Origin: Eledone cirrhosa
Taxonomy: Eukaryota
Assembly (NCBI GenBank): GCA_964016885.1
Contig: OZ024743.1
Coordinates: 163,866,001 to 163,930,000 of the forward strand
Direction: 5' to 3'
Length of the DNA stretch: 64,000 bases
Shown: in pieces, positions 7,138 to 63,749 of the stretch
Layout of the letters: every line of letters starts with the position of its first letter
How positions within the stretch are numbered: the stretch's first letter is position 1
The notes under the pieces: model-generated
Seen by the model: only the letters and a program-made list of their open reading frames with translations
Database searches by the model: none
What the model was told of the DNA's origin: nothing
Translations under genes and position numbers: made by a program

Positions 7138-7471
7138 TCATCATCATTTTACGGCCGCTTTTCCCTGCTTGCAAGGGTGGGACAGGAACTGATTCTGGCT
7201 TGATTTCTACAGCTGGATGCCCTTCCTAACACCAACCTCATTTACAGTGAGTGCTGGGTGCTTTTTTTTCCATGGCATCTCCACGACCACTTTACAGTGG
7301 AATGATATGGACCCCAGTCCCTATCATATCATTTCTAAAGCTGAGTAAACTGGAGCAATGTGAAATAAAGTGTCTTGCTCAAGGAAACAACACATCACCC
7401 GGTCTGAGAATTGAACTCACAACCTTTCGATTGCAAGGCCAATGCTCTAACCACTAAGCCATGTGCCTCCA
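7138..7471 (-). mobile_element. tRNA/CORE-like SINE with RTE tail
   Basis: Near-identical to 4051-4402. Confidence 0.9.
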
Positions 7472-7654
7472 TATATATATATATAAAAGAAAATTTCGCT
7501 CTACATGGCTGAATACAATAAATGTAATCTGACTTTTTCGAATATTAATAATAACATTCGATTTGTTTGCAATTATGCAAACAAACCTCAATTTTATAGC
7601 CATGTCAGTAGAATGAACACTTCATTCTTGCTCTTGTGTTGGCATGCGAACAGA

Positions 7655-7700
7655 ACTGCAGACAGAAATGTTTCTGGGTATCACCCTTCATCAGTACAGC
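7655..7700 (-). ncRNA. Type I hammerhead ribozyme
   Basis: Minus strand reads GCTGTA CTGATGA A GGGT gat ACCC A GAAA CA tttc TG TC TGCAGT. Stem I is GCTGTA/TGCAGT, the core is intact and the cleavage triplet is GUC. Confidence 0.8.
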
Positions 7701-8143
7701 TCACTGTTCACCTGCTAAATTGTCAGAGCTAGTGAAAATATATGCTATTTTCAAAAATACACAGTGACTGATCGGCTTGATTTGCATATTAGCAGACTGG
7801 CTGATCAGTCAGATCTACATATTAGCAGATCCACTGATCAGCCAGATTTGCATATCAGCAGACTGGCCAGTCAGTTTCCTGTATACGAGCGATAAATGGA
7901 CGACTTTGCCAAATTTAAATAAAAAAGAAAATTTCGCTCTACATGGCTGAATACAATAAATGTAATCTGACTTTTTCGAATATTAATAATAACATTCGAT
8001 CTGTTTGCAATTATGCAAACAAGCCTCAATTTTATAGCCATGTCGGTAGAATGAACCTTTCATTCTTGCTCTTGTGTTGGCATGCGAACAGAACTCCAGA
8101 CACTAATGTTTCGAGCTCTGACAGTTTGGCAGGTAAACAGTGA

Positions 8144-8189
8144 GCTGTACTGATGAAGAGTGATACCCAGAAAAATTAGTGTCTGCAGT
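8144..8189 (+). ncRNA. Type I hammerhead ribozyme, degenerate inverted copy
   Basis: GCTGTA CTGATGA AGAG tgata CCC A GAAA aattagtg TC TGCAGT. The core is intact; stems II and III carry mismatches. Confidence 0.65.
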
Positions 8190-8607
8190 TCTGTTCGCAT
8201 GCCAACACAAGAGCAAGAATGAACTGTTCATTCTACTAACATGGCTATAAAATTAAGGCTTGTTATCATAATTGCAAACGAATCGAATGTTATTATTAAT
8301 ATTCGAAAAACTCAGATTACATTTATTATACGTATATATATATTAATAAAAGATCGGAGGCAATATTCAGTTGATTCAGGTTTATTTAAAACTCTGTTAT
8401 ACTTATTTCATTGAGGACTATCAGATATGATAGCCTGAGCTCTTCAGATGGCAAAACCTAAAATAAACATTGAAAGTTCCTAAGAAATCTTTAAATTTGG
8501 AAAAATCCAGTAATTTCCCCGAAAAAGATTTGCTTTTCATTGATACAGGGGGCTGGCGAAACACATGGTGTTGTTTATTTGATGGCTGGCCCCTGTATGT
8601 GCATGCC

Positions 8608-27473: not shown

Positions 27474-29920
27474 TCATCATCATCATCATCAACGTTTAAC
27501 GTCCGTGTTCCACGCTTGCATGGGTTTGGACGGGGGTAGTCCCACTTGAGGCAAGAGTGATTGTCTTGCTCGCATAGGACTGTCTGGCAGGTTTTCTACA
27601 GCTGGATGCCCTTCCTAACACCAACCACATTTACAGTGTGGGTCTGGGAGGTTTTTACCGTGTTGCCTACACGGCCACATTACAGCGTGGACTGTCTGGC
27701 GGGTTTTCTACAGCTGGATGCCCTTCCTAACACCAACCACATTTACAGTGTGGGGCTGGGAGGTTTTTACCGTGTTGCCTACACGGCCACATTACAGCGT
27801 GGACTGTGTGTTTTTTTGTCGTGACACCTACACGATCTCATTTGTTTCGGCCTGGATGGTGTCGCACCAACACAACTTTACATAGAACGGGGTGGCGTGG
27901 ATGGAGTGGGGGTGGTGGGACGGGGGGAGGGGTATGTTGTTAGAGATGCCTACTGGCTGTAGTAGGTTTTACTATGTATTTAGGTAAGGCGGGTCTTCTC
28001 TGTTACTGAGTACCGCCAAAGGTCTCGGTCCAGTGACATTGTCTTGGAGAGGTGTAAGTGTGTGAGGTCGGAGTTTATCAGCTCGTCCCAGGTTTTTCTA
28101 GGTCTGCCTATTCCGTGGCTACCGTCTATCTTTATTGCCCTGCACTTTGTTATACAGCTATCGACTTTCATGCGCATCACGTGTCCATACCAACGTAGCC
28201 TTCTCTCGAGTAAACAACATCTGATCCCTCTTATTTCTAATTTTTTCCTTAGTTCGTTTATGCTTTGCCGTTCACGTATATTACTGTTACACATCCAGCG
28301 GAGCATGCAAGCTTCGTTCCTCTCTAGTCTGCGTATATCCTCTGCACACAATGCCCAGGTCTCACTGCCATGCAACATTGCTGTTCGTATGCAGGCATCG
28401 TACAACCTGCCTTTCATTTTTAGGGAGAACCCTCTAGCGGCTAATAGTGGTATAAGCTCTCTGAACTTTTTCCATCCAGTTCTGACTCTAGCTACTGTAC
28501 TTTCAGAGCACCCTCCCCCACTGCTGATTTTATCACCCAGGTAACGGAAACTGTCCACTATTTCTATAGAACCCTCTGCGCAATTGAAAGAGCTAGTATT
28601 TTGTGGGCACTTGCTGCTACTTATTGCACCAGAGCACGGGCCACATGTAAAATCTATGTTCTTAGTTAGCTTACCTGTGATCCCACTACATCTTTTATGC
28701 ACCCATACTTTGCATTTAGGACATAAAATGGAGTTTCTACCTACGCCTTTCCTACACACCGAGCACGACCATTTCCCAGAAGGGACCGCCGCCTTATTTT
28801 CTTTCCTACAAACTAGAACTTTAGTCTTAGCCAGGTTAATTTTAAGGCCTTTTGATTCTAGGCCGTGCTTCCATGTTTGGAATTTCTTCTCTAGCTCGGC
28901 CATTGATTCCGCTATGAGTGTCAGGTCGTCTGCGTATAGGAGTTCCCATGGGCAGCCGGTCTTGAACTCCTCTGTTATAGCCTGAAGGGCAATAATAAAT
29001 AGTAGGGGGCTGAGAACAGTGCCCTGATGGACGCCAACTTTTACACTAAACTCTTCACTATATTCGTTGTTAATTCTAACCTTGCTGACTGTTTCTTTAT
29101 ACATGGCTTGTATAGCTCTCACATGCCATTCGTCAACGCCTAGTTTTCTAAGAGCCCACCAGATAATGGAGCGGGGGACTCTGTCGAAGGCTTTCTCCAA
29201 GTCGACAAAAGCTAAGTAGAGGGGTTTACCTTTAGCTAGGTACTTCTCCTGTAGTTGTCGTACAATGAAAAGAGCGTCTGTGGTACTTTTGCCTGACACA
29301 AACCCGAACTGCATTTCATCTAGGTCAATTCTCTCTCTGATTAGTTGTGCTATTACTTTTTCCGTGACCTTCATGACCTGGTCGATTAATTTAATGCCTC
29401 TATAGTTACTCCTATCTAGGGCGTCTCCTTTACCCTTATAACAGTTAACGATGATGCTGCTATGCCAGTCCTTCGGAACAACCCCATTCTGTACGACTTG
29501 GTTAACTATGCGGGTGACCATGGTGTGTCCCACCGTGCCAGATGCCTTCAGCATCTCAGCAACTATTTCCGAAGGCCCAGCCGCCTTACCCGTCTTCATA
29601 TCCTTGATTGCCTTACTTATTATACTCCCCTCGACTAACACTGCTGGTCCCTCTATTGGGTCGATATGGGGGAGACTGTCTTTCTCCCATTTATTCTCCT
29701 CATTTAGTAGCCTTTCATAGTGACACTTCCAAGCTACCTTCTTATCAGCGTCGGTGATGGCAAGTGTGCCATCGTCGTTTAGTACACACTTCTCCCCGAC
29801 AATATCACGGTTTTCCTTGACGCATTGCCTAGCAATCCTGAACACCTCACGTTTTTGGTCATCGCGTTGTAGAACATGCTTGAACTTTCTTTCCTCAGCT
29901 TCCCTTCTTGCTAAGTACAC
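27471..29920 (-). mobile_element. RTE LINE (subfamily B), 5'-truncated, young
   Basis: A (CAT)n tail at 27471, a 3' UTR with a 112-bp tandem duplication, an uninterrupted RT ORF, and (TA)n on both sides. Confidence 0.95.
27980..29920 (-). CDS. RTE reverse transcriptase ORF (646 aa, N-terminally truncated) with PHD-like finger
   Basis: Motifs YKGKGD..NYRGIKL, QFGF, FVDLEKAFDRV, GVHQG..LSPLLF, LYADD, GLKIN..KTK, a C4HC3 insert, YLG and HGSETW. The start is the truncation point, not a real initiation codon. Confidence 0.9.
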   Translation of the reverse strand: MYLARREAEERKFKHVLQRDDQKREVFRIARQCVKENRDIVGEKCVLNDDGTLAITDADKKVAWKCHYERLLNEENKWEKDSLPHIDPIEGPAVLVEGSIISKAIKDMKTGKAAGPSEIVAEMLKASGTVGHTMVTRIVNQVVQNGVVPKDWHSSIIVNCYKGKGDALDRSNYRGIKLIDQVMKVTEKVIAQLIRERIDLDEMQFGFVSGKSTTDALFIVRQLQEKYLAKGKPLYLAFVDLEKAFDRVPRSIIWWALRKLGVDEWHVRAIQAMYKETVSKVRINNEYSEEFSVKVGVHQGTVLSPLLFIIALQAITEEFKTGCPWELLYADDLTLIAESMAELEKKFQTWKHGLESKGLKINLAKTKVLVCRKENKAAVPSGKWSCSVCRKGVGRNSILCPKCKVWVHKRCSGITGKLTKNIDFTCGPCSGAISSSKCPQNTSSFNCAEGSIEIVDSFRYLGDKISSGGGCSESTVARVRTGWKKFRELIPLLAARGFSLKMKGRLYDACIRTAMLHGSETWALCAEDIRRLERNEACMLRWMCNSNIRERQSINELRKKLEIRGIRCCLLERRLRWYGHVMRMKVDSCITKCRAIKIDGSHGIGRPRKTWDELINSDLTHLHLSKTMSLDRDLWRYSVTEKTRLT

Positions 29921-30034: not shown

Positions 30035-30262
30035 TAGTTATGTAATAAACAACATAAGACAATTATTCCATTTACCAAAGGTTTCAGGAAGACAGACGAG
30101 CTCGACGAAGTCGTCTGAAATCGTTCACCTGAATGAAATTTTATTTTATAAATAAAATTTCATTCTGACGAACGATTTCAGACGTCTGTGTCGAGCTCGT
30201 CTGTCTTCCTGAAACCTTTGGTAAATGGAATAATTTACTTATGTTGTTTATTACATAACTAA
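30035..30262. repeat. ~230-bp near-perfect palindrome (foldback/MITE-like)
   Basis: Arms ttagttatgtaataaacaacataag...gaatgaaattttattt and its reverse complement flank a tiny AT loop at ~30147. Confidence 0.9.
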
Positions 30263-38240: not shown

Positions 38241-38836
38241 ATATATATATATATATAAAGAAGGTGATGATGATGATGATAAAATAGAAGATTATAAATG
38301 CATTCCTCCTCACTCATCTTGAAGTTATTGAAGAGATAAGACACACTCTACTCTGAAAGGCTAAAATGAATCACTAGAGTTGATTTAGCTACGTTCCAGT
38401 CATCCATCCATACAAATCTGGTCAGGTATTTCAGCCACCACAACACATCTATTTTGTTATCCTCATTTTTCCCCTACCATGCTGACTCTGTCTCTGTCTA
38501 TTTTTCCATCAAAGGCTACAGGCCATGACTGGCTATTATTAATATTATTGTTGCTGTATTCTATTGGCTACTTTGCCAGGCTGTATTCTATCAGTTAGTT
38601 TGTTAGCCTTGATGGCGACCCTCTCTATACCTCACAATTTCCCTCCCACCCACCTGCTCACACCACCATCCCACCCACCCCCTCACACCACCATAGCCTA
38701 TTCGACCAATCAAACCTCAGCATGCCATTTCTTCTACTACTACCTAACTCTCTCCTCCCCCATCCCAGCCCAACACACCCTGCCATTATTACCACCACCA
38801 CTGTTCTTCTAGCCCTCAATTTTCCTACCAGTATGG

Positions 38837-40051
38837 ATGGATGAGCTGAGAATAAATTGGAGCAACTCTGAATTAATAGATGAAATGAATATGAATCCGC
38901 GAGCTACCAAGCACCCATGTGAAGCGCCAATCCAGAAAGAGGAAGCACACACACACCCCCGCAAAAATCGACCCTTCCCTACAAGTGTCGACAAATGCCC
39001 CAAACTCCGAGTTGGTACCATCAATGTAAGGACAATGAAAGGAAGAGCAGGAGAAATGCTAGACCGAAAGGAAATTGATGTATGCTGTGTGCAAGAGACT
39101 AGATGGAGAGGAGAGTCTGCTAGAGACCTTGTAGGAAAAAGTCGGTGCTACAAATTTTTCTGGGTGGGAAATGACGATGGGATGGGTGGTGTAGGTATAC
39201 TACTAGCTGACAAGTGGGTAGATAAAGTAATCTCAGTGTACAGGGTAAATGCAAGAATCATTAAACTCAGACTAGTCCTGAATAAAACAATTACCACAAT
39301 AATATCAGCTTACGCACCCCAATCGGGGTTGCCAGACAAACTTAAGGATAGATTTTACGAGTCCCTAATGCACACTACTGCTCTAACAAACGACAATGAC
39401 TTCCTAATCATCGCAGTAGATTTTAACGGACACGTTGGTAAACACTGTGACAGCTTCAATGGAGGCCATGGGGTTGGCACAAGAAATGAAGAAGGATTCA
39501 GACTTCTAGAATTCTGCGACGCCAATGACATGTCCATATGTAACACAAACTTCAAAAAGCCCGACAACCACTTGATCGCCTATAGATCAGGGGAGCATTC
39601 TAGTCAGATAGATTTTATCCTCATCAGAGAACGTGACAGATGGACGGTCGTAAACACAAAAGCCTTCCCTGGTGAGGAATGTACCTCCCAACATAGCTTA
39701 GTTGTCAGCGACCCCACAGTCAGAACTAGACGAACCTGGAAACAGAGGCCAACCTGGAGAAGAAAGATCTGGAAGCTGAAAGACCCCTCAGCCAGTAACA
39801 GATTTAAAGATATTTTACTCAATGCCTACGACAGTAAAGAAGAACAGATAGAGACATTCAATGTAGAAGAGCACTGGGAGTTCCTAAAAAATAACTTACT
39901 AGAGGCGACAGATGAGGTCTGTGGCTGGAGTAAGACCACAAGCAGGAGGAGAGTGACTTGGTGGTGGAACAATAAGGTAGATGAGGCAGTTAAGGCCAAG
40001 AGACAGGCATGGAAAGAATGGAAGAACGGGGGAGCAGGGTACATTACATAG
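38837..40051 (+). CDS. RTE apurinic-type endonuclease domain (frameshifted into RT)
   Basis: GTINVRTM, CCVQETRW, GGVGILL, ISAYAPQ, DFNGHVG, QIDFIL, SQHSLV. Confidence 0.9.
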   Translation: MDELRINWSNSELIDEMNMNPRATKHPCEAPIQKEEAHTHPRKNRPFPTSVDKCPKLRVGTINVRTMKGRAGEMLDRKEIDVCCVQETRWRGESARDLVGKSRCYKFFWVGNDDGMGGVGILLADKWVDKVISVYRVNARIIKLRLVLNKTITTIISAYAPQSGLPDKLKDRFYESLMHTTALTNDNDFLIIAVDFNGHVGKHCDSFNGGHGVGTRNEEGFRLLEFCDANDMSICNTNFKKPDNHLIAYRSGEHSSQIDFILIRERDRWTVVNTKAFPGEECTSQHSLVVSDPTVRTRRTWKQRPTWRRKIWKLKDPSASNRFKDILLNAYDSKEEQIETFNVEEHWEFLKNNLLEATDEVCGWSKTTSRRRVTWWWNNKVDEAVKAKRQAWKEWKNGGAGYIT

Positions 40052-40172
40052 AGACCAAGAGGGAAGCTAGGCGACAAGTATACATAGGTAGGAGGGAAGC
40101 AGAGGATAGAAAATTCAAGCATGTTTTGCAACGTGAGGACCAGAAACAGGAGGTGTTCAAGATTGCGAGGCA

Positions 40173-41351
40173 GTGTGTCAGGAGAATTGTGATGTCATTG
40201 GAGAGAAGTGTATCCGGAATGATAAAGGTGAGCTTGCCCTCACAAGTGCTGAGAAGAAAGATGCATGGAAGAGTCATTATGATAGATTACTAAATGAGGA
40301 GAATGCATGGGAAGAAGAGACCCTACCCCAAGTAGACCGTATAGAGGGGCCAGCAGTACAAGTCAGCAGCAACGTAGTAAGTAAGGCAATCAAAGATATG
40401 AAGATGGGGAAGGCAACCGGTCCATCGGGTATAGCTGCCGAGATGCTGAAGGCATCTGGGTCTGTAGGTCACACTATAACCACACGTATTGTTAACCAGG
40501 TAATACTAGGTGTCATACCAAAAGATTGGTGCAGTAGCATCATTGTCAACTGCTACAAAGGTAAAGGTGATGCACTCGATAGAGGAAACTATAGAGGTAT
40601 AAAGCTGATGGACCAGGTCATGAAAGTAACAGAAAGAGTTATAGCACAGTTGATTAGGGACCGGGTAAAACTAGATGAGATGCAATTTGGGTTTGTACCA
40701 GGAAGAGACACCACTGATGCCCTCTTCCTTGTGAGGCAGTTACAGGAAAAGTACCTAGCTAAAAGTAAGCCACTCTACCTGGCATTCGTTGATCTCGAGA
40801 AAGCCTTTGACAGAGTTCCACGTGCTGTAATCTGGTGGGCTCTTAGAAAACTAGGAGTAGATGAACGGCTTGTGAAAGCTGTACAAGCCATGTATAGGGG
40901 AGCAGTCAGCAAAGTTAGGATTAGCAATGAGTATAGCGTACTGGTTGGGGTCCACCAGGTCTCTGTTCTTAACCCTCTCCTGTTCATCATAGTTTTGCAG
41001 GAAATAACGGAGGAGTTTATGACCGGATGCCCATGGGAACTCCTGTATGCTGATGACCTCGTACTTATAGCAGAATCTATGGTAGAACAAGAGAAGAAAT
41101 TCCAAACTTGGAAGCAGGGACTAGAAAGAAAGGGTCTCAAAGTCAACATGACAAAGACTAGGGTCCTTGTAAGTAGACGAGAAAACAGAACCCAGATCCC
41201 CTCAGGGAAATGGCCTTGCTCAGTATGTAGGAAAGGTGTAGGTAGGAACTCCATTCTCTGCCCCAAATGCAAACAATGGGTACACAAGAGATGTAGCGGG
41301 ATCTCAGGAAGCTTAATTAAGAATGTAGCCTTCACATGCAGCATGAGGTGA
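40173..41351 (+). CDS. RTE reverse transcriptase, truncated after the PHD-like finger
   Basis: QFGF, DLEKAFDRV, LYADD, then WPCSVC..CPKCKQWVHKRC..FTC. Confidence 0.9.
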   Translation: MCQENCDVIGEKCIRNDKGELALTSAEKKDAWKSHYDRLLNEENAWEEETLPQVDRIEGPAVQVSSNVVSKAIKDMKMGKATGPSGIAAEMLKASGSVGHTITTRIVNQVILGVIPKDWCSSIIVNCYKGKGDALDRGNYRGIKLMDQVMKVTERVIAQLIRDRVKLDEMQFGFVPGRDTTDALFLVRQLQEKYLAKSKPLYLAFVDLEKAFDRVPRAVIWWALRKLGVDERLVKAVQAMYRGAVSKVRISNEYSVLVGVHQVSVLNPLLFIIVLQEITEEFMTGCPWELLYADDLVLIAESMVEQEKKFQTWKQGLERKGLKVNMTKTRVLVSRRENRTQIPSGKWPCSVCRKGVGRNSILCPKCKQWVHKRCSGISGSLIKNVAFTCSMR

Positions 41352-44339: not shown

Positions 44340-47300
44340 ATGTTGTCAAATAATTTTGTTGATTATGTTATTCCAATCTTATTTGAATTAACACAAATAT
44401 GTTTTATAGTTTTTTTTTAAATGAATGGATTTTTCTGTCAGCCCAATACATTTTGAAATCCCAACATTTTCTACATATGTCTAAAACTAACTATACCGCA
44501 TACACATTCAGATAAACATTTCATTGCAACATTACTGAGGGAACCTCCAATATATTTTATATTTGTTTCTATTTTGGATGGTGTGTATTCTGTAATATCA
44601 CTTCAAATACCTTGGAAACACTGCATTATATGGAAGGCCAAGAGAAGGAAAGTGCAGTGATCTGAAGAAAGTGAAAAAGTTGACAAGCCCCTCTCGGATC
44701 CAAACAGCTTTAGCATGAGCACAAGAATTAGTAGTGGACAGACAGTACCATTTGGATGAAAAGAGACAAAGGACTTGCTGCTACACAAAAACAACAAATT
44801 TAGGAACGGCAGCAAATTAGAAGAAATACTGATCAAGCACATCGTTCTACTGCCTGAGCAGCAGAACAAGCCATTGATTGGTGATTTTTCTTATGACCTC
44901 CAAAAGAACTACAGCAGCAATCCAGAAACCAACCTTGGAAAAATGAACAAATGCTGCTAGCATTGTGGTGCCAAAAAGTAAATATCAGAAACATCAGGTC
45001 TATGCTGCTCAAAAAGAGAAGTCAACCATAAAACAATACAGGAGCCTCCAAAATCTCTAAAGAATCTGCTTTTCCGGAATACCCTGGAAGCACGACATTT
45101 CAATAAATACACCCAAAAACATAATTCTGCCTTTCAAATAACATCTTTTGGAACTGACAGGAATGTGACCGACTTTAGATTCTAGACAACTTTAAAAATT
45201 CAGGAATAGTGCTACCACTTAATGGGTGCCCTTCTGCCATTTTCACAGGAGCCTCAGAAATTTTTGCAGGTTTACTTGATGGGTGGAAATGAAACAGAGG
45301 CACAACAGAGATGTACCAATGTCCATGGTGGATTGCAGTTCTACATAGTCATGAAGTTATAAGAAATGCTTCACCAACATCACATATACGTCAGTACATT
45401 TAAATATGCACTGGAGCATATGAACAACAGCAGGGATTGTAAAATTATCATCATCAGAGCAGACAAATGCCCAGCTTTAGAATATGAACGCAGGTTCAAT
45501 GCACCTGTCACTGATGAAGTTGCAATCATAATGGTTGATGAACAGCATGAACGACGTGACATTGTTTTGCAAAAACAAAGTGGACATTTGGAGCGAATTT
45601 GTGAAACTCATAGAGCCTATGATTCACTCCAATATCCGCTCATCTTTTGGAATGGTCAAGATGGATATCATTTTCAGCTACGGCAGATCAGCCCAGGAAC
45701 AGAACAAGAAACTAGTCAATCAATCAGTTTGCAAAGAATTCTATGTTTATCATTTCATGGTACTTGATCACTTCAACCAAGTTCTGCGATTCAAAGAAGT
45801 AACCAGCCAGTTCATGGTGGACATGTATGCCAAAATTGAAACAGATTGGGTTTCCTGTGAGAGAATCAAAGTAAGTTGAGAGCAGATAACTACATCCACC
45901 TTAGTGATGCCATCAATTCTGATGGTGACCCAAGAAATATTGGCCAGACAGTCATACTGTTATCAAGCTTTATGAGAGGACCACGTTACATGCATGAACG
46001 CACGCAGGATACAATGGCCCATGTCAGAAAATTTGGTTGGCAGTATCTCTTCAAATTGGACAGAAATATCAAATGAATTATTTCAAAATCAAAAACTGAC
46101 GGATTGGCATGACCTCATTGCTTGGGTGTTTCATGTTAAACAAAAAAACTCCTCTGGCTCCTAAAAGAAGGAAGAATCTTTGGTGAGCTTAGTACCTGGA
46201 TGATCACTATTGAGTGACAGAAGAGAGGTCTTCCTCACTCTCACACACTAATCTGATGCAAGGAGAAGATAAGACCAGATGATGTTGATAAGATCATTTC
46301 AGCAGAGTTGCCTGATAAAGATGGTGATCTAGAGCTCTTTGAAACCATCAAGTCCAAACTCATCTATGGTTCACATGGAGCCATCAATCCAGCCTCTCCC
46401 TGCATGAAAGATCAAGAATGCAGCAAACATTATCCTATTCGGGAAACTCAGACAGACAATGATGGATATCCTTTTTGTTGTAGGTGTAGACCAGAACGTT
46501 GAGGCAATACTGCAAACCTAACAGTTTGATGAGAACTGACCATAGACAATCGATTGGGAATCCTACACAACAAATTGTGCAAACTCTTAAAAGCCCATAT
46601 CAATGTTGAGTATTGCAGCTCTGTCAAAGCAATTCTATATGTCACAAGGGCAGTGACATGGCTACCTTTGTTACTGACAAGGAACTCAATGATGGTTGTC
46701 TGGTTGAGGTCAAACATTATTAGACAGGTCAATACATCTCCAGCGATGAAGCTATCTGGCTTAGTCAACCTATCAGTCCATCTGGAGAATGGACTGAGAG
46801 TGTGCTTCACTGAGACCACTGCTCATCAGTTAGCACAAGCACCACCCAACACTAGTCTAATTGCTTTTTAAACTCTGCTGAGATTCCATCATACTACCCC
46901 TGGATGAATTGCAAGACCTTGAATCGAAAGAAGCAAGGTTATTTAGTGGAAGGTCATGAAATCAAAGCAAATGATGCTATTGGGCGTGTTTTCAGTGTTC
47001 ACTCCAACAACAGAGAGTGCTTTTATCTATGGCTATTTCTGCATACATTTTGAGGACCAATGTCATTTGAGGGTGTCAGGTGCTCCGGAGGAAGGGTGTA
47101 TGCAACATACCAAGAAGCATGCAAACAGTCAGTCAAATAAGACAGTTGCTTGCTATTATGCTCACAGCATAGAGAATTGACGAAGCTCATCTACTCTGGC
47201 TGGAGTACAAAAACAATAAGCTGGTAGACTATCTACACCTAGCCTGAAGACATCATAAGAATATGTATATAGAATGTTCACCCAGGATTTACAATCAAGT

Positions 47301-49636
47301 TCTCTGCGACCTGTCCCATTGAATTCTGGCAACGAATAACACATTAGCTAACTCCAGGATGCCAGAGCCAGATCAAGAAATGGAGGTAGCACAAGAAATT
47401 TTTCAGAAGTCAAACTATGATATTCAAGCCTTGCGTGACATTGCAGCAACACTTCTGGAAGGAAGAAGAACACACTCCATGTTTAAGCTGCCCATAGACT
47501 TCACACAGTATGAACAATTTTTTTGCAACATCAAGACCTCGCCCAAGGTCAAGCTTCTGTAAATATGCAAGATGATAATTTGGGATGAAGATACCATGAG
47601 CAGTTGAAGCCTTAGACTGGACAATAAGGGATCTGAGAGACAATACTTGCATAATGGTAGTTGTGACAATAGTTCTTGCTGGTGATTTCTGACAAACTCT
47701 GCCTGTAATTCCTCGAGGGACCCAAGCTGATCAGGTCAATGCCTATCTGAACACATCTTATTTCTGGACACTCTTGCAGTGACTGAGCCTTACAAACAAT
47801 ATGCGAGTGCATTTGACTGCTGATGAAGGTGTCAGTGAGTTTACCATACAGCTACTCAAACTGGGAAATGAAATTCTTGAAAAAGATTTCAACAACCAGA
47901 TTCAGTTGTCCTTTGGCCATATCACTGAAACAGAACAAGAACTGATTGTCTAAGTGTTTTTAAACATTCAGATCAGACAATGTGGTCCCCAATAGTTCTG
48001 TGGATAAGCAATCTTACCACTGAAAAATGTTGCTGCGAGAGAAATCAACAGAAAGCTACTGGACATGTTACCGGGAGAGAAAAGATGCTATAAATCAGTT
48101 GACACAATCACTTCCCAAGACCAGGTTGTAAATTATCCAACTAAATTTTGGGACAGTCTTGAACTAGCAGGAATTCCTCCACACAACCTGATACTGAAGC
48201 TTGGAGCATCAATTATACTGCTACTTAATCTGGATCTTCCAAAACTTTGCAATGACACAAGACTTATCATCAAAATTATTTTGCCCAATGTCTTAGAAGT
48301 CATAATCATGTCAGGAAAAGCTGCTGATGACAATTGTTTTATTCCCAGAATACCTCTGAAGGCAACTGATCTGCTATTTGAATTTCAAAGGCTTCAATTT
48401 CCTATCAGACTCAGTTTTGCCATGACCATCAATAAATGTTGAGTGCAATCATTAAAAGTCGTTGGGTTGAACCTGGCAGATCCTGTCTTTTCACTTGGTC
48501 AGCTCTATGTTGGTACTACAAGGGTTGGAAACCCTGATTGTCTCTTCATTATAGCACCACAGGGCAAAACCAAGAATATTGTTTATCCAGAGGCTTTGGA
48601 ATGAGCAATATCGTAATTCCTATTTTAATGACAAGGCACATAGATCCTAATTCCTTAGTCATGTAGTTTGTAAGGAATTCTGAAATTGCAAATTTACTAC
48701 ATAAGAATATGCAGGCATCCCCAGGTACCTCTGCTATATAAAGTAGTATAGTGGTAGCTAGAACTGTTAGAAATAGCATCCAAATTTCCTTCAAATCCCT
48801 CCCTACTCTCTCATGTAGATATGTATGAAACAAAAAGAAAAGGTTCTATGTGATATCTCGATCTATTAGAAATATAGGCAAAATTCCCCTCAAACCATAG
48901 CCAACTGTATTACACAAACGTGGATGCATACATACATGTGTGTGTATGTATGTTGTGGGGGCCACTATAATTTTTGGTACACCTGATAGAAATAGAAAAC
49001 AAATCCCCCTCAAACACAATCCTACTGCTTTCAAGGTAAAGGTAGGTGACAGCTACAGAGTAAAAACGTAATTGCACTTTCCTGAATTACAGAAATGAAT
49101 AAGTAAATGCTTCATCCATGAGCCAATGCTAACTTTATTTTTTTTTTTATTTTATTTTATTTTTTTTTATTTTATTTTATTTTATTTTATTTTATTTTAT
49201 TTTATTTTATTTTATTTTATTTTATTTTATTTTATTTTATTTTATTTTATTTTATTTTATTTTATTTTATTTTATTTAAGATTTTCAAAATAGTCTGTTT
49301 TGTTTTGAATTTTGGAGGTTCTGTTTGTGCAAAACAAAAAGAAGATAAATAAAAAGAATTCCAAATTTATTTTTCGTCAAGCCCTTTTCACTGACAACAT
49401 ATCTAATGATTTATCTATAGGCAAAACATTATATATGCTGACTGCAAAGTATTCAAAACTAATAATATTTTTATCTAGATAACTTGCATTGAATAAGCAA
49501 CAATGAAAACTTGCTATAGTTCCTATTTTAGTGAAAATATTGTAATCCTATTTTATTGGTCAAATATTTTGTAATATGTACCAAAATATATTGTTATTTT
49601 CATAAAATACTGGGTATTGCCAGGTACCTCTGCTAT
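44340..49636 (+). mobile_element. Decayed autonomous Helitron (Rep/PIF1 helicase pseudogene)
   Basis: Rep region: HRAYDSLQYPL, SSFMRGPRYM and the HUH motif E*QKRGLPHSH (~46212-46244). Helicase region: GRRTHSMFKLP, IIWDE, GDF*QTLPV, QFPIRLSFAMTINK and GQLYV. 3' end-like motifs lie at ~48745 and ~49636. The 5' boundary is uncertain. Confidence 0.9.
49141..49277. repeat. (TTTTA)n pentanucleotide microsatellite
   Basis: Direct reading. Confidence 0.95.
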
Positions 49637-56027: not shown

Positions 56028-56299
56028 GTATATATATATACATACACACACACATGTGTATATATATATATCCAATGTCAATTTAATCCCTAGGGATTTT
56101 TGTACAAGTTGAAAACATGTTATATATATATATATAGAGATAAAAAAAAACATGGGTGTGTATGATTGTGTATAGAAGATTATATTAATAAGAGGAATTC
56201 CAACTTTGTCTGATTTACTCGTTTTATTTACAATCCTTTAAAATTTATAATGGTATTATAATGAAATAGTATGATAAATATTAAATGTTAAGTGTTAAT

Positions 56300-56338
56300 T
56301 GAACAAGTACTTTCATGCTTTCGCAATCTTCAGGTTCA
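56300..56338 (-). ncRNA. Minimal type I hammerhead ribozyme in the PLE 3' pseudo-LTR
   Basis: Minus strand reads TGAAC CTGAAGA tTGC gaaa GCAt GAAA GTAC TT GTTCA. It has a 5-bp stem I, a GNRA-capped stem II and palindromic stem III AGTACT. Confidence 0.85.
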
Positions 56339-56723
56339 TAATGTGTGGTGACAGTCAAGTTTGCAATTTTCAACTGTAATGAGATGGGTAAATTTTGTAC
56401 CTTATATACAGTGAAAAGTGGCTCCAGAATGCTAAATCTTGCAAACTGTATTTCGACCAATCGGTGTGTAGTTTCACTGAATTACTAAAGCTGATTGGTT
56501 TAGGCGTCACGGTTGGTTGAGCATGTCTAACGACCACTAATTGAGCCTATCCAAAGCATCAATTGTTTTGCTATTTTTAGAAATGATGAAAATAGCATTT
56601 TCTAGTAATCATCACCATCAACATAACTTTTATTATTATTATTATTGTTGTTGTTATTGTTAGTGGTCGTAGTCGACATGGTCGTAGTCATAGTCATAGT
56701 AGAAGTAATACCTCTAAGCATTA

Positions 56724-57434
56724 TTATTGTTCATTTAGCTTGGGTTTGAATTTATCAATAAAATTCTTTTCTTTAATTTTTCTCTTGATTTCACTTGGGC
56801 TGTGTAATTTGTAGAATGGGAATATTATAAATATTCCCTGACCACATGTTGCTAGATAGTTACTTAGGGGTATCTGACGGACATTTGGGTCTCTGATTTG
56901 CTGATGGTGTACCCGTGCACGTTCCGATAGTGCATTTCCAGTTTGACCGACATATAGTTCTTCACAATTCGGGCATTTAATGCAGTAAATTAGATTTCTG
57001 CTTTTGCAGTTCATATTTGCATTTGGGAATATTTTTCCAGTTTTTGTGTTCATATATTGACCAGTATGTATGGATTGACATGTGCCACATCGACTATCAT
57101 TGCATTTAGATACAGTGAATGATTGGTCTTTGTTGTTAAGGTCAAACTTTGCTTTTGTTAGTAATTGCTTCAAATTTTTCGGCTGCCTTTTACTAAGAGT
57201 CAAAGATCGATCTGTGATTAAGCCTTTTAATTCATTACTTTGAGCAATGATCGGTAGGTTTGCTTTGGCAGTGTTGAAGATATTCTGGTGACATGGGTTG
57301 TGTGTCATTATAAATGGTATGACCAGTTCTTGGTTTCTTCTTCCTTGGGTTGTCCTAAGTTGTTGTATAGGTATTTTTATAGCCCGCTGTATGCCATTTT
57401 CTATAAGTAGAGATGGGTATTTTTGTTTGAGCAA
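56724..57434 (-). CDS. PLE C-terminal linker and GIY-YIG endonuclease (pseudogene fragment)
   Basis: NLIYCIKCPNCEELYVGQTGNALSERARVH..KEKNFI..FKPKLN. Confidence 0.85.
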   Translation of the reverse strand: MLKQKYPSLLIENGIQRAIKIPIQQLRTTQGRRNQELVIPFIMTHNPCHQNIFNTAKANLPIIAQSNELKGLITDRSLTLSKRQPKNLKQLLTKAKFDLNNKDQSFTVSKCNDSRCGTCQSIHTGQYMNTKTGKIFPNANMNCKSRNLIYCIKCPNCEELYVGQTGNALSERARVHHQQIRDPNVRQIPLSNYLATCGQGIFIIFPFYKLHSPSEIKRKIKEKNFIDKFKPKLNEQ

Positions 57435-59139
57435 AAATTCTTAGTTCTGTTAGGCGTTTGTACCTGGTATTCGTATCTTCTACAATGGTACAAATTCTTC
57501 TGGCTAGGCAGTATGGGATGTTGCGTTTTGTATGAGGTGGATGGCATGACTTAAAATTCAGATATTGATGGGTGTCTGTGTGTTTATAATATATATCCGT
57601 GGTAATGGTGGTGTCGTTTTTGATTATCATTATATCTAGGAATGGTAATTTGGTCCTACTCATCTCTTTTGTGAATTGGAGAGATGAGTGTAGGTTATTC
57701 AGGAGGATATTGAACTCATCCAGAGTATCTAGAGATTCTGTCCAGATGATGAAACAGTCGTCAAGGTATCTCTTCCAAGATTTTTCAATGTACTTTCTAA
57801 AGTCAGTACTATATTTTTTCTATATACCTTAGTAGAGTTGTTGTTCTAAGTATCCCATTACAGAGTTCGCGTAAACAGGAGCAAACTTCGTTCTCATCGC
57901 TGTGCCTCTAATTTAGATGTAATTCTTTCCATTGAAGAAGAAAGTGTTGTTTTCCAGAATAAGTGTAACTGTGTCAAATATAAATGGCGCTGTGAATCGG
58001 ATGGGAATCACTTCTCTATGTTTTTCCACCCAGTATTTAACCGCCTTTATTCCTAAATCATGTGTAATGTTGGTGTAAAGGCTTACCACATCAAAACTAA
58101 GTAGAAGTGAATTCGTTTCCGTGGTTTTGGGAAGATGGGACAGGAAGTCGATATCATCCCGGATGAAACTGGGTATGTGAATACATAGTGGTTTTAAAAT
58201 AATGTCAACAAAATTGCTTAGACGTAGGTGGGGCATGTTGGACCAGCTATAATAGGTCTAAGTTTTAAGTCTTTTGGGTGTAGTAATTTAATGTACTCAC
58301 TGTTTTGTTCTCTTACTGCCAGTTGTATTTCTTTTGACTTATGAACTTTTGGTAGGCCATACAGATTGCTGGGTTTTGGCTCAAAATTGGTGATGTAATC
58401 TCTTTCCTTATCAGTAAGTGAGTTGTGGTATTTTGAACCCAGGTTGTTGATCTTCTTCATGATGTTGTGGTCTATATTTGACGGTATTTCATGATAGAAT
58501 GTTGTGTCTTTCAGTTGTTCCTCAACCAAATCCTTGTAGTATTCAGCATCCATTATAACAACTGCACCCCCTTTATTTGCTTGTTTAATTATTATTGTTT
58601 TATCATTTTGTATACGTTTAAGTGCAGACATTTCTGATTTGTTAATGTTTGGCCTAACATTAGTATTACGTCTAAGAGGAAATTTAGACAGGATGTCAAT
58701 GTATTGGTCGAGATAGATATTTCTTCCTTTTGGCGGAGTGAAATTTAATTTATTCTTTACTAGTGATTCATCACTCTCATTACTTTTATCAGTGAAGAAT
58801 TCTACAAGACGTAATTTTCGACAGAATTCTTGGGTATCCTCTTTCAGTTCTTGGTGGTTGACTGTTGGAGTCGGTGTGAATTTCAGTCCTTTTGACAGAA
58901 TTTGCATTTCATCATTGTCAAGATCTCTTTTAGATAAATTAATTATTTTAGGATCTACGTGTACAGTTGTTTTGGGTATGTTTCCTCCTGGAGTTTTTCT
59001 TTTTCCGGTTTTTGTTGTCCTGACGTTAAAAAATGGATTTTTCTCTGTTCAGGATTTATATTCTTGTTGGTGTTTGCTTGAACTTTTGGTCGTGATATTA
59101 TATTTGGTTTGGTTACGTATTTTGTCCTATTTTTGGTAT

Positions 59140-59176
<37 letters not shown>

Positions 59177-60604: not shown

Positions 60605-63292
60605 TCATCATCATCATCATTTAACATCCATCTTCCACGCTAGCATGGGTCTGGACGGGAATTGTCCCACTTGAGGCCAGATTGGTTGTCTTGCTCAGGA
60701 CTCTCTGGTGGGTTATCTACAGCTGGATGCCCTTCCTAACACCAACCACGTTTATAGTGTGGACTGGGCGGTTTTTACCGTGTTACCTACACAGCCACAT
60801 TACAGTGTGGACTGTGTTTTTTTGTCGTGACACCTACACAACCTCATTTATTTAAGACTGGATGTTGAGGTACCAACATAGCTTTACATCGAAAGGGGTG
60901 GTGTAGATGGCCATGGGGGTAGGGGTAGTGGGACGAGGGTGTATTTTGGTTAAAAGGTGCCTACTGACTGTAGGTTTCGCTTTGTACTTAGGCAAGGCGG
61001 GTCTTCTGTATTACTACGTAGTGACATTATCTTGGAGAGGTGTAAGTGTGTGAGGTCGGATTTTATCAAGTCCCAAGTTTTTCTAGATCTGCCTACTCCG
61101 TAGCTACCGTCTATTTTGATCGCCCTGCACTTTGTTATACAGCTGTCATCTTTCATGCGCATCACGTGACCATACCAACGTAGTCTTCTCTCAAGTAAAC
61201 AGCATCTGATCCCTCTTATTCCTAATTTCTCACTTAGTTCATTTATGCTTTGCCGTTCGCGTATATTACTATTACACATCCAACGGAGCATGCAAGCTTC
61301 ATTCCTCTCCAGTCTGCGTAGATCCTCTGCACACAAGGCCCATGTCTCACTGCCATGTAACATCGCTGTTCGTATGCAGGCATCATACAGCCTGCCTTTT
61401 ATTTTTAGAGAGAAACCTTTAGTGGCCAATAGTGGTATAAGCTCTCTGAACTTTTTCCATCCCATTCGGACTCCAGCTACAGTACTTTCGGAGCACCCTC
61501 CACCACTGCTGATTTTGTCACCCAGGTAACAGAAGGTGTCCACTATTTCTATAGAACCATCTGGGCAATGGAATGAGCTAGTATTCTGTGGACATTTGCT
61601 GCTACTTATTGCACCAGAGCACCGACCACATATAAAATCTATATTCTTAGTTAGCTTACCTGTGATCCCACTACATCTTTTATGCACCCATACTTTGCAT
61701 TTGGGACATAAAATGGAGTTTCTGCCTACTCCTTTCCTACACACTGAGCATGGCCATTTCCCAGATGGGACCAGTGCCCTATTCTCCTTGCTACATATTA
61801 GGACTTTAGTCTTAGACAAGTTAACTTTAAGGCCTTTTGATTCTAGGCCATCCTTCCATGTTTGGAATTTCTTCTCTAGTTCCGCCATTGATTCGGCTAT
61901 GAGTGTTAGATCATCTGCATAGAGAAGTTCCCATGGACAGCCGGTCTTGAACTCCTCCGTTATAGCTTGGAGAGCGATAATAAATAGGAGGGGGCTAAAG
62001 ACGGAACCCTGATGAACACCAACTTTTACGCTAAACTCTTCACTATATTTGTTGTTAATTCTAACCTTGCTGACTGTTTCTTTATACATGGCTTGTATAG
62101 CTCTCACAAGCCATTAATCTACACCTAGTTTTCTAAGAGCCCACCAGATAATGGAGCCGGAGACTCTGTCAAAGGCTTTCTCCAGGTCTACAAAAGCTAA
62201 GAAGAGGGGTTTACTTTTAGCTAGGTACTTCTCCTGTAGTTGTCGTACAAGGAAAAGAGCGTCTGTGGTACTTTTACCTGACACAAACCAGAACTGCATT
62301 TCATCTAGATCAATTCGCTCTCTGATTAGTTGCACTATTACTTTTTCTGTGACCTTCATGACCTGGTCAATTAATTTAATGCCTCTATAGTTTCCCCTAT
62401 CTAGGGCATCTCCTTTACCCTTGTAGCAGTTAATGATGATGCTGCTACGCCAGTCCTTTGGTACGACCCCATTCTGTATAACTTGGTTTATTATACTACC
62501 TTCAACTTGCACTGCTGGTCCCTCTATTGGATCGATGTGGGGGAGACTGTTTTTCTCCCATTTATTCTCCTCATTTAGTAGCCTTTCGTAATGACACTTC
62601 CAAGCTACCTTCTTATCAGCGTCAGTGATGGCAAGTACACCATCATCATTACGGACACACTTCTCCCCGACAATATCACGGTTCTCCTGAACACCTCACG
62701 TTTTTGGTCCACGCGTTGTAGAACATGCTTGAACTTTCTTTCCTCTGCTTCCCTTCTTGCAAAGTACACTTGTCTCCTAGCTTCCCTCCTAGCCACTTGA
62801 TAGTCTTCTCTACTTCCCCCATCCCGCCATACTTTCCAAGCCTGCTTTTTGGCCTTGATTGACTCCTCCACCTTACTGTTCCACCACCAAGTTTCTCTCC
62901 TCCTGCCTATAGGTCTGCTCCAGCCACAGATTTCATCTGTCGCCTTCAGCAGGTTAGCTTTCAGGAATTCCCACTGTTCCTCTATATTGTACGACTCTAA
63001 TTGCTCTTCCTTACTGTCAAAAGCATCAAGTAATATGCTTTTAAATTTATTACTGGCTGTGGGGTCCTTTAACTTCCATATTTTTCTCCTAAGGATAGTC
63101 CTCTGTTGTCGAATACGTCTCATCCTGACTATGAGGTCGCTAACTATGAGGCTATGTTGGGAGGTGCATTCTTCATGGGGGAGGGATTTAGTGTTTACAA
63201 CAGACACTCTGTCTCGTCTTCTGGTAAGGATATAATCTATCTGACTCGCGTGTTCCCCTGATCTATAGGTGATCAATTGATTGTCTCGTTTT
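60605..63292 (-). mobile_element. RTE LINE (subfamily B), truncated within the endonuclease, with small internal deletions
   Basis: ORFs 62605..63411 (QIDYIL, SQHSLI), 62114..62512 and 60950..62107 (LYADD, finger, YLG). It has a (CAT)n tail and (TA)n flanks. Confidence 0.95.
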
Positions 63293-63323
63293 TTTGAAGT
63301 TAATATATCTGTATGTGTGTATG

Positions 63324-63394
<71 letters not shown>

Positions 63395-63407
63395 ATGTAT
63401 TTATATA

Positions 63408-63749
63408 TCATTTCATCATTTCATTTTACGTCCGCTTTTTCCCTGCTTGCAAGGGTGGGACGGGAACTGATTCTGGCTTGATTTCTACAGCTGGATGCCC
63501 TTCCTAACACCAACCTCTTTTACAGTGAGTGCTGGGTGCTTTTTTGCCGTGGCACCTCCACGACCACTTTGCAGTGGAATGACAGGGACCCCAGTCCCCT
63601 ATCATCTCATTTCTACAGCTGAGTAAACTGGAGCAATGTGAAATAAAGTGTCTTACTCAAGAAAACAACACATCACCCGGTCTGAGAATTGAACTCACAA
63701 CCTTTCGATTGCAAGGCCAATACTCTAACCACTAAGCCATGTGCTTCCA
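63408..63749 (-). mobile_element. tRNA/CORE-like SINE with RTE tail
   Basis: Near-identical to the other copies and embedded in TA/TG microsatellite. Confidence 0.9.

Follow-up and report, generated by a model that had tools for sequence, protein, structure and literature searches.

The locus at positions 7485–8330 of the window, the 64,000-nt stretch of DNA analysed as a whole, is a two-armed insertion of a 438-nt repeat with Penelope-type ends. With a probability of roughly 0.7, this repeat is a dispersed non-coding hammerhead element that is copied in trans into (TA)n tracts by a Neptune-type Penelope-like element (PLE), often from cut RNA. The entire locus is composed of one 438-nt unit, arranged as a full and a partial direct copy followed by an inverted arm, and the three copies are 93–96% alike. 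Read on the minus strand, unit 249–438 (8112–7923) leads into unit 1–438 (7922–7485) and then into a (TA)n target tract (7471–7484), the same anchor at which most family copies end. The full unit (7485–7922, minus strand, with unit 1 at 7922 and unit 438 at 7485) is non-coding and highly self-paired, while the upstream partial unit (7923–8112, minus strand) constitutes a pseudo-LTR, the two being related by a direct repeat of 438-bp period (7485–7674 versus 7923–8112, 190 nt, 96%). A single base (8113), outside both arms, marks the head-to-head junction with the inverted arm (8114–8330, plus strand, unit 193–409), which matches 7514–7730 over 217 nt at 93% and ends at the inner 3' site, next to a TA-rich tract (8331–8345) that it has in common with a neighbouring unrelated repeat. 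The segment between the two preferred 3' ends (7485–7513, minus strand, unit 410–438) is a PLE-type "tail" (PMC11167929 and PMC8557442, which like the other papers below are cited from excerpts), borne by the direct arm of the window locus and missing from the inverted arm. Three 33-nt subrepeats (7767–7875, minus strand) form the central part of an extended hairpin predicted at unit ~31–165, and a second predicted hairpin (7540–7561, minus strand, unit 362–383) is uninterrupted in the window copy. The partial unit is broken off at the G of GAAA (unit 249) but retains GAAA, loop III, the GUC (8101–8099) and the 3' strand of stem I. It begins 14 nt before the cut site, thus its template was uncut or re-ligated there. 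Two changes common to both direct copies in the window are missing from the inverted arm, which suggests a separate, second RNA as the template of that arm. An earlier note on this DNA had described a ~190-bp direct repeat of 438-bp period, three ~33-bp subrepeats, an inverted copy at 8114–8330 and a second direct copy cut inside the ribozyme, and all its coordinates proved correct within a few bases. In contigs from three runs of one sample the unit appears as a high-depth repeat, and no contig piece from these runs spans the window locus, junction 8112–8114 included.

The unit belongs to a large family. Counted as exact matches across the 3.0 Gb genome, a measure that undercounts diverged copies, a 28-nt core occurs 1,426 times and a 32-nt 3' motif 1,720 times, the 438/1 unit junction 200 times, two cores one unit apart 39 times and two successive unit junctions only twice, the reversed control of each pattern giving 0. 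The locus is therefore not a product of chance, given 1,426 core matches against none for the reversed control. A first-look genome search with the unit returned 3,570 candidates, and the best of the 40 that were scored span the full unit at 94–96% identity. Two complete tandem ribozymes, missing at the window locus, are present at 39 exact-match places in the family. The 438-nt family thus consists of dispersed truncated and partial-tandem copies and is not a satellite; long satellite arrays were rejected on the two exact double junctions, with the reservation that exact patterns undercount diverged copies. The copy check proposed in the earlier note is answered by these 1,426 exact core matches, which are mostly dispersed partial tandems. 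The longest ATG frames of the unit reach 56 aa on the ribozyme strand and 83 aa on the opposite strand, so that it contains no long open reading frame and, with ATG frames of at most 83 aa, none for a reverse transcriptase (RT) plus GIY-YIG endonuclease. Its GC content is ~37%. The fold of the unit is far more stable than expected (z = −10.2) and, as 0 of 100 shuffles are equally stable, its structure is not due to chance. The three subrepeats are predicted to fold together as a single long hairpin, and each of them carries an octamer-like ATGCA(A/G)AT. These three motifs (window 7780–7853; unit 70, 103 and 136) precede an AT-rich box and the ribozyme, an arrangement reminiscent of the snRNA-type promoter of newt satellite 2. 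A slight 5'-end signal at unit 196–223 could be a start site. No description of the 438-nt family was found in the openly accessible literature, and it may already be catalogued in Repbase, Dfam, subscription journals or preprint supplements.

A motif scan of the whole window revealed two hammerhead candidates with an 8-bp stem I, at 7653–7702 on the minus strand (copy 1) and at 8142–8191 on the plus strand (copy 3), together with three weaker candidates, including one at 56300–56338 behind the PLE open reading frame. Copy 1 displays the 8-bp stem I, CUGAUGA, a 4-bp stem II, GAAA, a 3-bp stem III and the GUC (7663–7661), with the predicted cut at 7661/7660, equivalent to unit 262/263. The family majority has the elements of copy 1, a tetraloop on the 3-bp stem III and an unpaired A on each side of stem II. 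The type I core (CUGANGA, GAAA, UH and three helices, with stem I open) is present, and all 15 pairs are formed in copy 1 and in the family majority. The G10.1–C11.1 pair beside G12 is absent, an A–A occupying the base of stem II where G–C is canonical; the PLE hammerheads described in the excerpts of PMC4209133 have a single additional base, and that solely on the 5' side. Copy 1 also carries a private 2-nt change that abolishes the self-complementary loop III of the family and keeps the monomer fold. The minus-strand hammerhead was previously called intact, which holds for its 15 pairs but not for the base of stem II or the lost loop III palindrome, and the second hammerhead claimed on the plus strand does exist but is likely inactive, with a broken pair in each of stems II and III. 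Rfam, suggested as a check of these motifs, returned no hammerhead model among 108 matches at E ≤ 1 in the window, where the matches comprised only microsatellite-driven miRNA matches below gathering score and weak tRNA matches. In the family majority, stem III and its loop are fully self-complementary (10 pairs, −8.8 kcal/mol), the same design as in the dimer hammerheads of PLEs and salamanders (PMC4209133, PMC7229834), and the monomer favours an inactive fold by ~6 kcal/mol. Within the unit, variation is lowest in the 51-nt hammerhead motif (2.4% versus 2.9–6.0% elsewhere, 91 segments). Among the dimers tested by Li et al. 2026 (10.64898/2026.07.22.740005), the excerpt reports cleavage in vitro for one of nine.

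The 3' ends of the family closely follow the pattern of PLEs. The first 100 consecutive exact matches on contig C1 served as an unbiased sample, in which 43 segments stop at unit 400–412 and 26 at the 438 end, the remainder being SINE-interrupted (18), continuing into the next unit (8) or ending elsewhere (5). Thus, 69 of the 100 segments stop at either of two sites ~30 nt apart (spacing 28–33 nt), and 50 of these 69 natural ends pass directly into (TA)n, in agreement with the PLE habit of inserting into microsatellites and leaving no obvious target-site duplication. The distance between the two ends matches the PLE tail (30–40 nt), which Frangieh et al. 2024 (PMC11167929) traced to two internal reverse-transcription start sites. 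A partial tandem, or pseudo-LTR, combined with an inverted truncated 5' copy is found at the window locus and at many others. Partial tandems, inverted 5' copies, a one-end tail and microsatellite targeting are all attributed to PLEs in the excerpted parts of Craig et al. 2021 (PMC8557442), and the window locus is a textbook case of these insertion marks. As a separate observation, another repeat has inserted repeatedly at one hairpin site of the unit (unit ~371–390, equivalent to window 7533–7552), at 22 of 234 sites with duplicates included and in 18 of the 100 segments of the contig C1 sample (examples are L012, L097, L104, L145 and L198). This repeat, which we take to be tRNA-SINE-like, is always in the orientation of the ribozyme, and the inserts vary in 5' truncation and duplication length. 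A SINE-containing subfamily of the unit was rejected, since the inserts are unlike in 5' extent and duplication length; the site is a strikingly specific SINE-like insertion hot spot.

The 5' ends of the copies step up at the predicted cleavage site. The first sample comprised 131 junction-crossing chains from 150 loci, 10 duplicate loci having been dropped beforehand. In this sample 48 chains extend as far as position 273 of the upstream unit, and 17 of them terminate at 262–273, where 3.65 are expected from the flanking rate, whereas 2 of 31 chains stop within the following 12 nt; a peak of this size arises anywhere in 29 of 5,000 constant-rate simulations. In a second sample, selected by a motif 3' of the cut site, 20 of 89 end at 262–273, where 4.86 would be expected in a 14-nt interval, and a further 3 end at 246–259. 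When the two are pooled, with the three segments common to both removed, the step lies between 258–261 (0 of 98) and 262–265 (12 of 110), and the ends continue at 266–269 (13 of 123) and 270–273 (11 of 134). Inverted or single-unit segments of the first sample, taken alone, display no significant enrichment (5 of 32 versus 2.6, P = 0.11), and two of the seven first-sample ends at 262–264 come from fold-backs at a 6-nt palindrome and can be placed only to within a few bases. The simplest reading of the footprint is that cDNA runs off a cut 5' end and that repair then trims a few bases. As the 5' ends pile up right after the predicted cut site, cleaved RNA is a likely template for copying. The self-cleaving RNA proposed at the outset gains from this genomic footprint, by which the unit RNA is probably cleaved in vivo. 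Two-thirds or more of the chains extend past the cut site, the partial copy of the window among them, thus cutting is partial or undone by ligation. Junction reads at the GUC, put forward earlier as a test, are of no use, since re-ligation restores exactly the sequence of the uncut DNA. No report of a genomic 5'-end peak at PLE hammerheads was found in the openly accessible literature. The function of these ribozymes is described as unclear in the excerpt of Craig et al. 2021 (PMC8557442), while that of PMC11167929 reports that hammerhead mutants left insertion of an anole PLE unimpaired in vitro and that no RNA reads of the anole element started at the cut site.

The peak might alternatively reflect the path of the RT on uncut templates, the unit being a PLE-mobilised element with a passenger ribozyme and the ends arising through stalling or fold-back at a helix formed by 263–277 and 212–228. 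This helix is predicted, and the 3' cleavage product begins with one strand of it over 15 bp, so that stalling would give a similar step. The cost of opening is high just 3' of the helix, up to 15.9 kcal/mol at 284, where 11 of 100 segments also end (274–288), and the unimpaired anole mutants, with no reads from the cut site, agree with an idle ribozyme (PMC11167929, in part). However, the stronger helix of the subrepeats (up to 17.6 kcal/mol) produces no peak, with 0.004 ends per nt over 60–259, and the enrichment is already established at 262–265, where three pairs at most remain, with no ends at 258–261. Stalling is on these grounds an unlikely source of the peak. It is slightly more likely than not that cut RNA is a major in vivo PLE template, about a quarter to a third of ribozyme-reaching cDNAs stopping at the cut 5' end, and that the arms may use different RNAs.

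Less probable still is a classical non-LTR retrozyme that spreads mainly by rolling-circle reverse transcription on a ligated 438-nt circle. Comparison of the laps provides mixed evidence on the circularity of the unit RNA, as far as sequence variants can report on it. Rare variants are shared by 9.3% between tandem laps of one insertion and 6.9% between opposite arms, compared with 1.3% between units at different loci, a roughly 7-fold excess for the laps, and the mismatch at eight polymorphic sites is 14% between laps, 12% between arms and 32% between loci. At locus L143, two rare changes are common to laps and arms. These figures, together with the very stable unit fold and the partial copy of the window that crosses the cut site, speak for a circle, but mismatches at two or more of the diagnostic sites occur in 14 of 68 tandem pairs, which is unexpected from one circle read twice, and likewise in 15 of 90 arm pairs. 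Thus, a single monomer seems to have been read twice in some insertions, either round a circle or by jumping back along a linear one, and others look like two different units. Long arrays are nearly absent, with 2 exact double against 200 single junctions, and copying round a closed circle should leave no stop at 263; the rarity of arrays and the stop therefore disfavour pure rolling-circle copying. Circles may be the source of some templates, not all. RNA-editing bias was not detected: in the 384 unit segments, out of 437, that have ≥90% identity, A>G changes number 250 and T>C changes 260.

The question of a partner enzyme was addressed with three PLE families, A, B and C, each of which has a Cys-rich linker ahead of its GIY-YIG endonuclease, a trait tied to the Neptune clade and to microsatellite targeting in the excerpt of PMC8557442. 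The PLE of the window (56.7–59.0 kb, within 56130–59150 on the minus strand) is a frameshifted, Neptune-type member of family A with a GIY-YIG domain. Family A is very large and young, many copies having 775-codon frames, and its 3' UTR contains CCAAT- and TATA-like boxes and the minimal hammerhead at 56300–56338, with U–U at the base of stem II. The similarity of the unit to the 3' UTRs of families A and B stays within that of shuffles and BLAST finds none to the UTR of family C, so that no autonomous partner with a unit-like 3' end was found among these three families. The unit was accordingly rejected as the UTR of the window PLE, none of 30 family-A loci carrying it as such and one (L083) containing unit fragments. 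Family B was rejected as parent since its 20 extended loci possess a separate, microsatellite-rich 3' UTR that lacks the unit; this UTR (L203–L220) is ~1.3 kb long, with long internal (TA/TG)n tracts, and no canonical hammerhead was found in it by motif scan. The link drawn earlier to the RT at 56–59 kb is thus unsupported, its 3' UTR being no more unit-like than shuffles, and the earlier fear that the unit is only the UTR of a coding PLE was checked for families A–C, whose UTRs are unlike it. In 281 fetched unit loci (duplicates included), three have the 5' end of the unit fused directly to PLE coding DNA, of family B at L036 and L042/L202 and of family C at L268, and a fourth junction (L132/L201, family B) lies among the 20 family-B loci that include L036 and L042. 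These coding junctions are at unrelated positions, and three of the four chimeras are fused head-to-head, the unit arm meeting TA- or A-rich DNA at its far end. No direct junction to family-A coding DNA occurs among the fetched loci, and at L024 a family-A 3' end lies 18 nt from the unit across a (TA)n tract. From the chimeras we infer that unit RNA and PLE RNA meet within one insertion complex. Copy number, the absence of long reading frames, the 3' ends and the chimeras together support the original view of a non-coding, multicopy unit mobilised by a PLE. It is highly improbable that a coding PLE, known only as 5'-truncated copies, has the unit as its 3' UTR or pseudo-LTR: PLEs are usually truncated and have hammerheads in their pLTRs (PMC4209133, excerpt), a few loci fuse the unit to PLE coding DNA and the comparison covered families A, B and C rather than every family of the genome, but unit 438 precedes unit 1 at no fewer than 200 exact matches, the junctions to coding DNA, most of them head-to-head, are scattered over unrelated positions and involve two families with unlike 3' UTRs, and the family-A loci show no such UTR.

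Mobilisation of the unit by a PLE, partly through cut RNA, can be arranged in four steps. An RNA longer than the unit would be transcribed from partial-tandem or dimer loci, for which the three octamer-like motifs and the AT-rich box upstream of the ribozyme may serve as a candidate promoter. The hammerhead would then cut a share of this RNA at unit 262/263, as the footprint suggests; cutting would be incomplete, the majority monomer favouring its inactive fold and the self-complementary loop III being suited to cleavage as a dimer. The RT and GIY-YIG endonuclease of a PLE would nick (TA)n, and cDNA would begin at either internal site, unit 405/410 or 438, the step whose footprint is seen in the 3' ends; priming from both sides of the break would generate the head-to-head arms. 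Synthesis would finally stop either at an arbitrary position or on reaching a cut 5' end, templates that are uncut, re-ligated or jumped would yield partial tandems such as that of the window, and different RNAs may serve the two arms.

Other repeats surround the locus. A second, unrelated short repeat of ~270 nt (8346–8540, minus strand; 1,368 first-look candidates) has a hammerhead-like core, a (TA)n end and inverted partial copies, and no PLE protein match was found in 12 of its loci. Several other type I hammerhead families turned up incidentally in a set of 20 loci, 9 kb each (L202, L204, L205, L207, L213, L216, L218 and L219), including a 332-nt tandem at L205 and some inverted pairs, and the genome is dense in type I hammerhead motifs. 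Elsewhere in the window, frame fragments of a LINE reverse transcriptase and endonuclease, presumably RTE-like, are located at 27980–29920, 38813–41351 and 60950–63420, Helitron-like helicase fragments at 45363–48442, and a near-perfect ~45-bp inverted repeat with a short spacer, possibly a MITE, at 30085–30211.

Metazoan non-LTR retrozymes are characterized, in the excerpts of PMC7229834 and 10.64898/2026.07.22.740005, as non-coding, self-paired elements of 150–450 bp with a GC content under 50%, a type I hammerhead and thousands of copies. The 438-nt unit shares with them its size, low GC, lack of coding capacity, self-pairing, copy number and type I motif. In contrast to retrozymes, almost all 438-nt copies are dispersed partial tandems with inverted arms rather than arrays, and the window locus has only one complete tandem ribozyme. 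The PLE tail, the (TA)n targeting, the unit–PLE chimeras and the 5' peak at the cut site are features for which the excerpts on retrozymes hold no report. With EN+ Neptune PLEs the family has in common the partial tandem, the inverted 5' copy, the ~30-nt tail and microsatellite targets (PMC8557442, PMC11167929, in excerpt), as well as a hammerhead with a short self-complementary stem III (PMC4209133, likewise), but it differs from these elements in its lack of an RT or GIY-YIG reading frame and in the additional A that flanks stem II on either side. The anole PLE used uncut RNA in vitro (PMC11167929, part), whereas the genomic footprint of the unit suggests cut RNA. Similarly to the unit, non-autonomous Chlamys PLEs such as MRC1 are non-coding, have pLTRs and head-to-tail insertions and are mobilised in trans; they generally share the 3' sequence of the autonomous family, which was not found for the unit in families A–C, and most Chlamys elements have no canonical hammerhead, whereas the unit carries a type I motif (PMC8557442, in the parts excerpted). 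Judged by these sequence features, the unit behaves as a non-autonomous PLE of the Neptune type would and also agrees with published descriptions of metazoan non-LTR retrozymes, and it is accordingly named here a candidate retrozyme.

The class of element is known and its link to PLEs has already been proposed, metazoan retrozymes being argued to derive from PLEs on the basis of co-occurrence and pLTR similarity (10.64898/2026.07.22.740005, excerpt); what is new is a measurable footprint of the cut site and the unit–PLE chimeras, which point to candidate partner enzymes. If the proposed mechanism is true, it would provide genome-scale evidence on the role of PLE hammerheads, and the arms of one insertion could pair a retrozyme with a coding PLE. 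The thousands of copies permit direct counting of cut-linear, uncut-linear and circular templates. The ends of these copies step sharply at the predicted cut, in contrast to the dispensability of the ribozyme in vitro in the excerpted experiments (PMC11167929), and the dispersed partial tandems place the family between array-forming retrozymes and ordinary PLEs.
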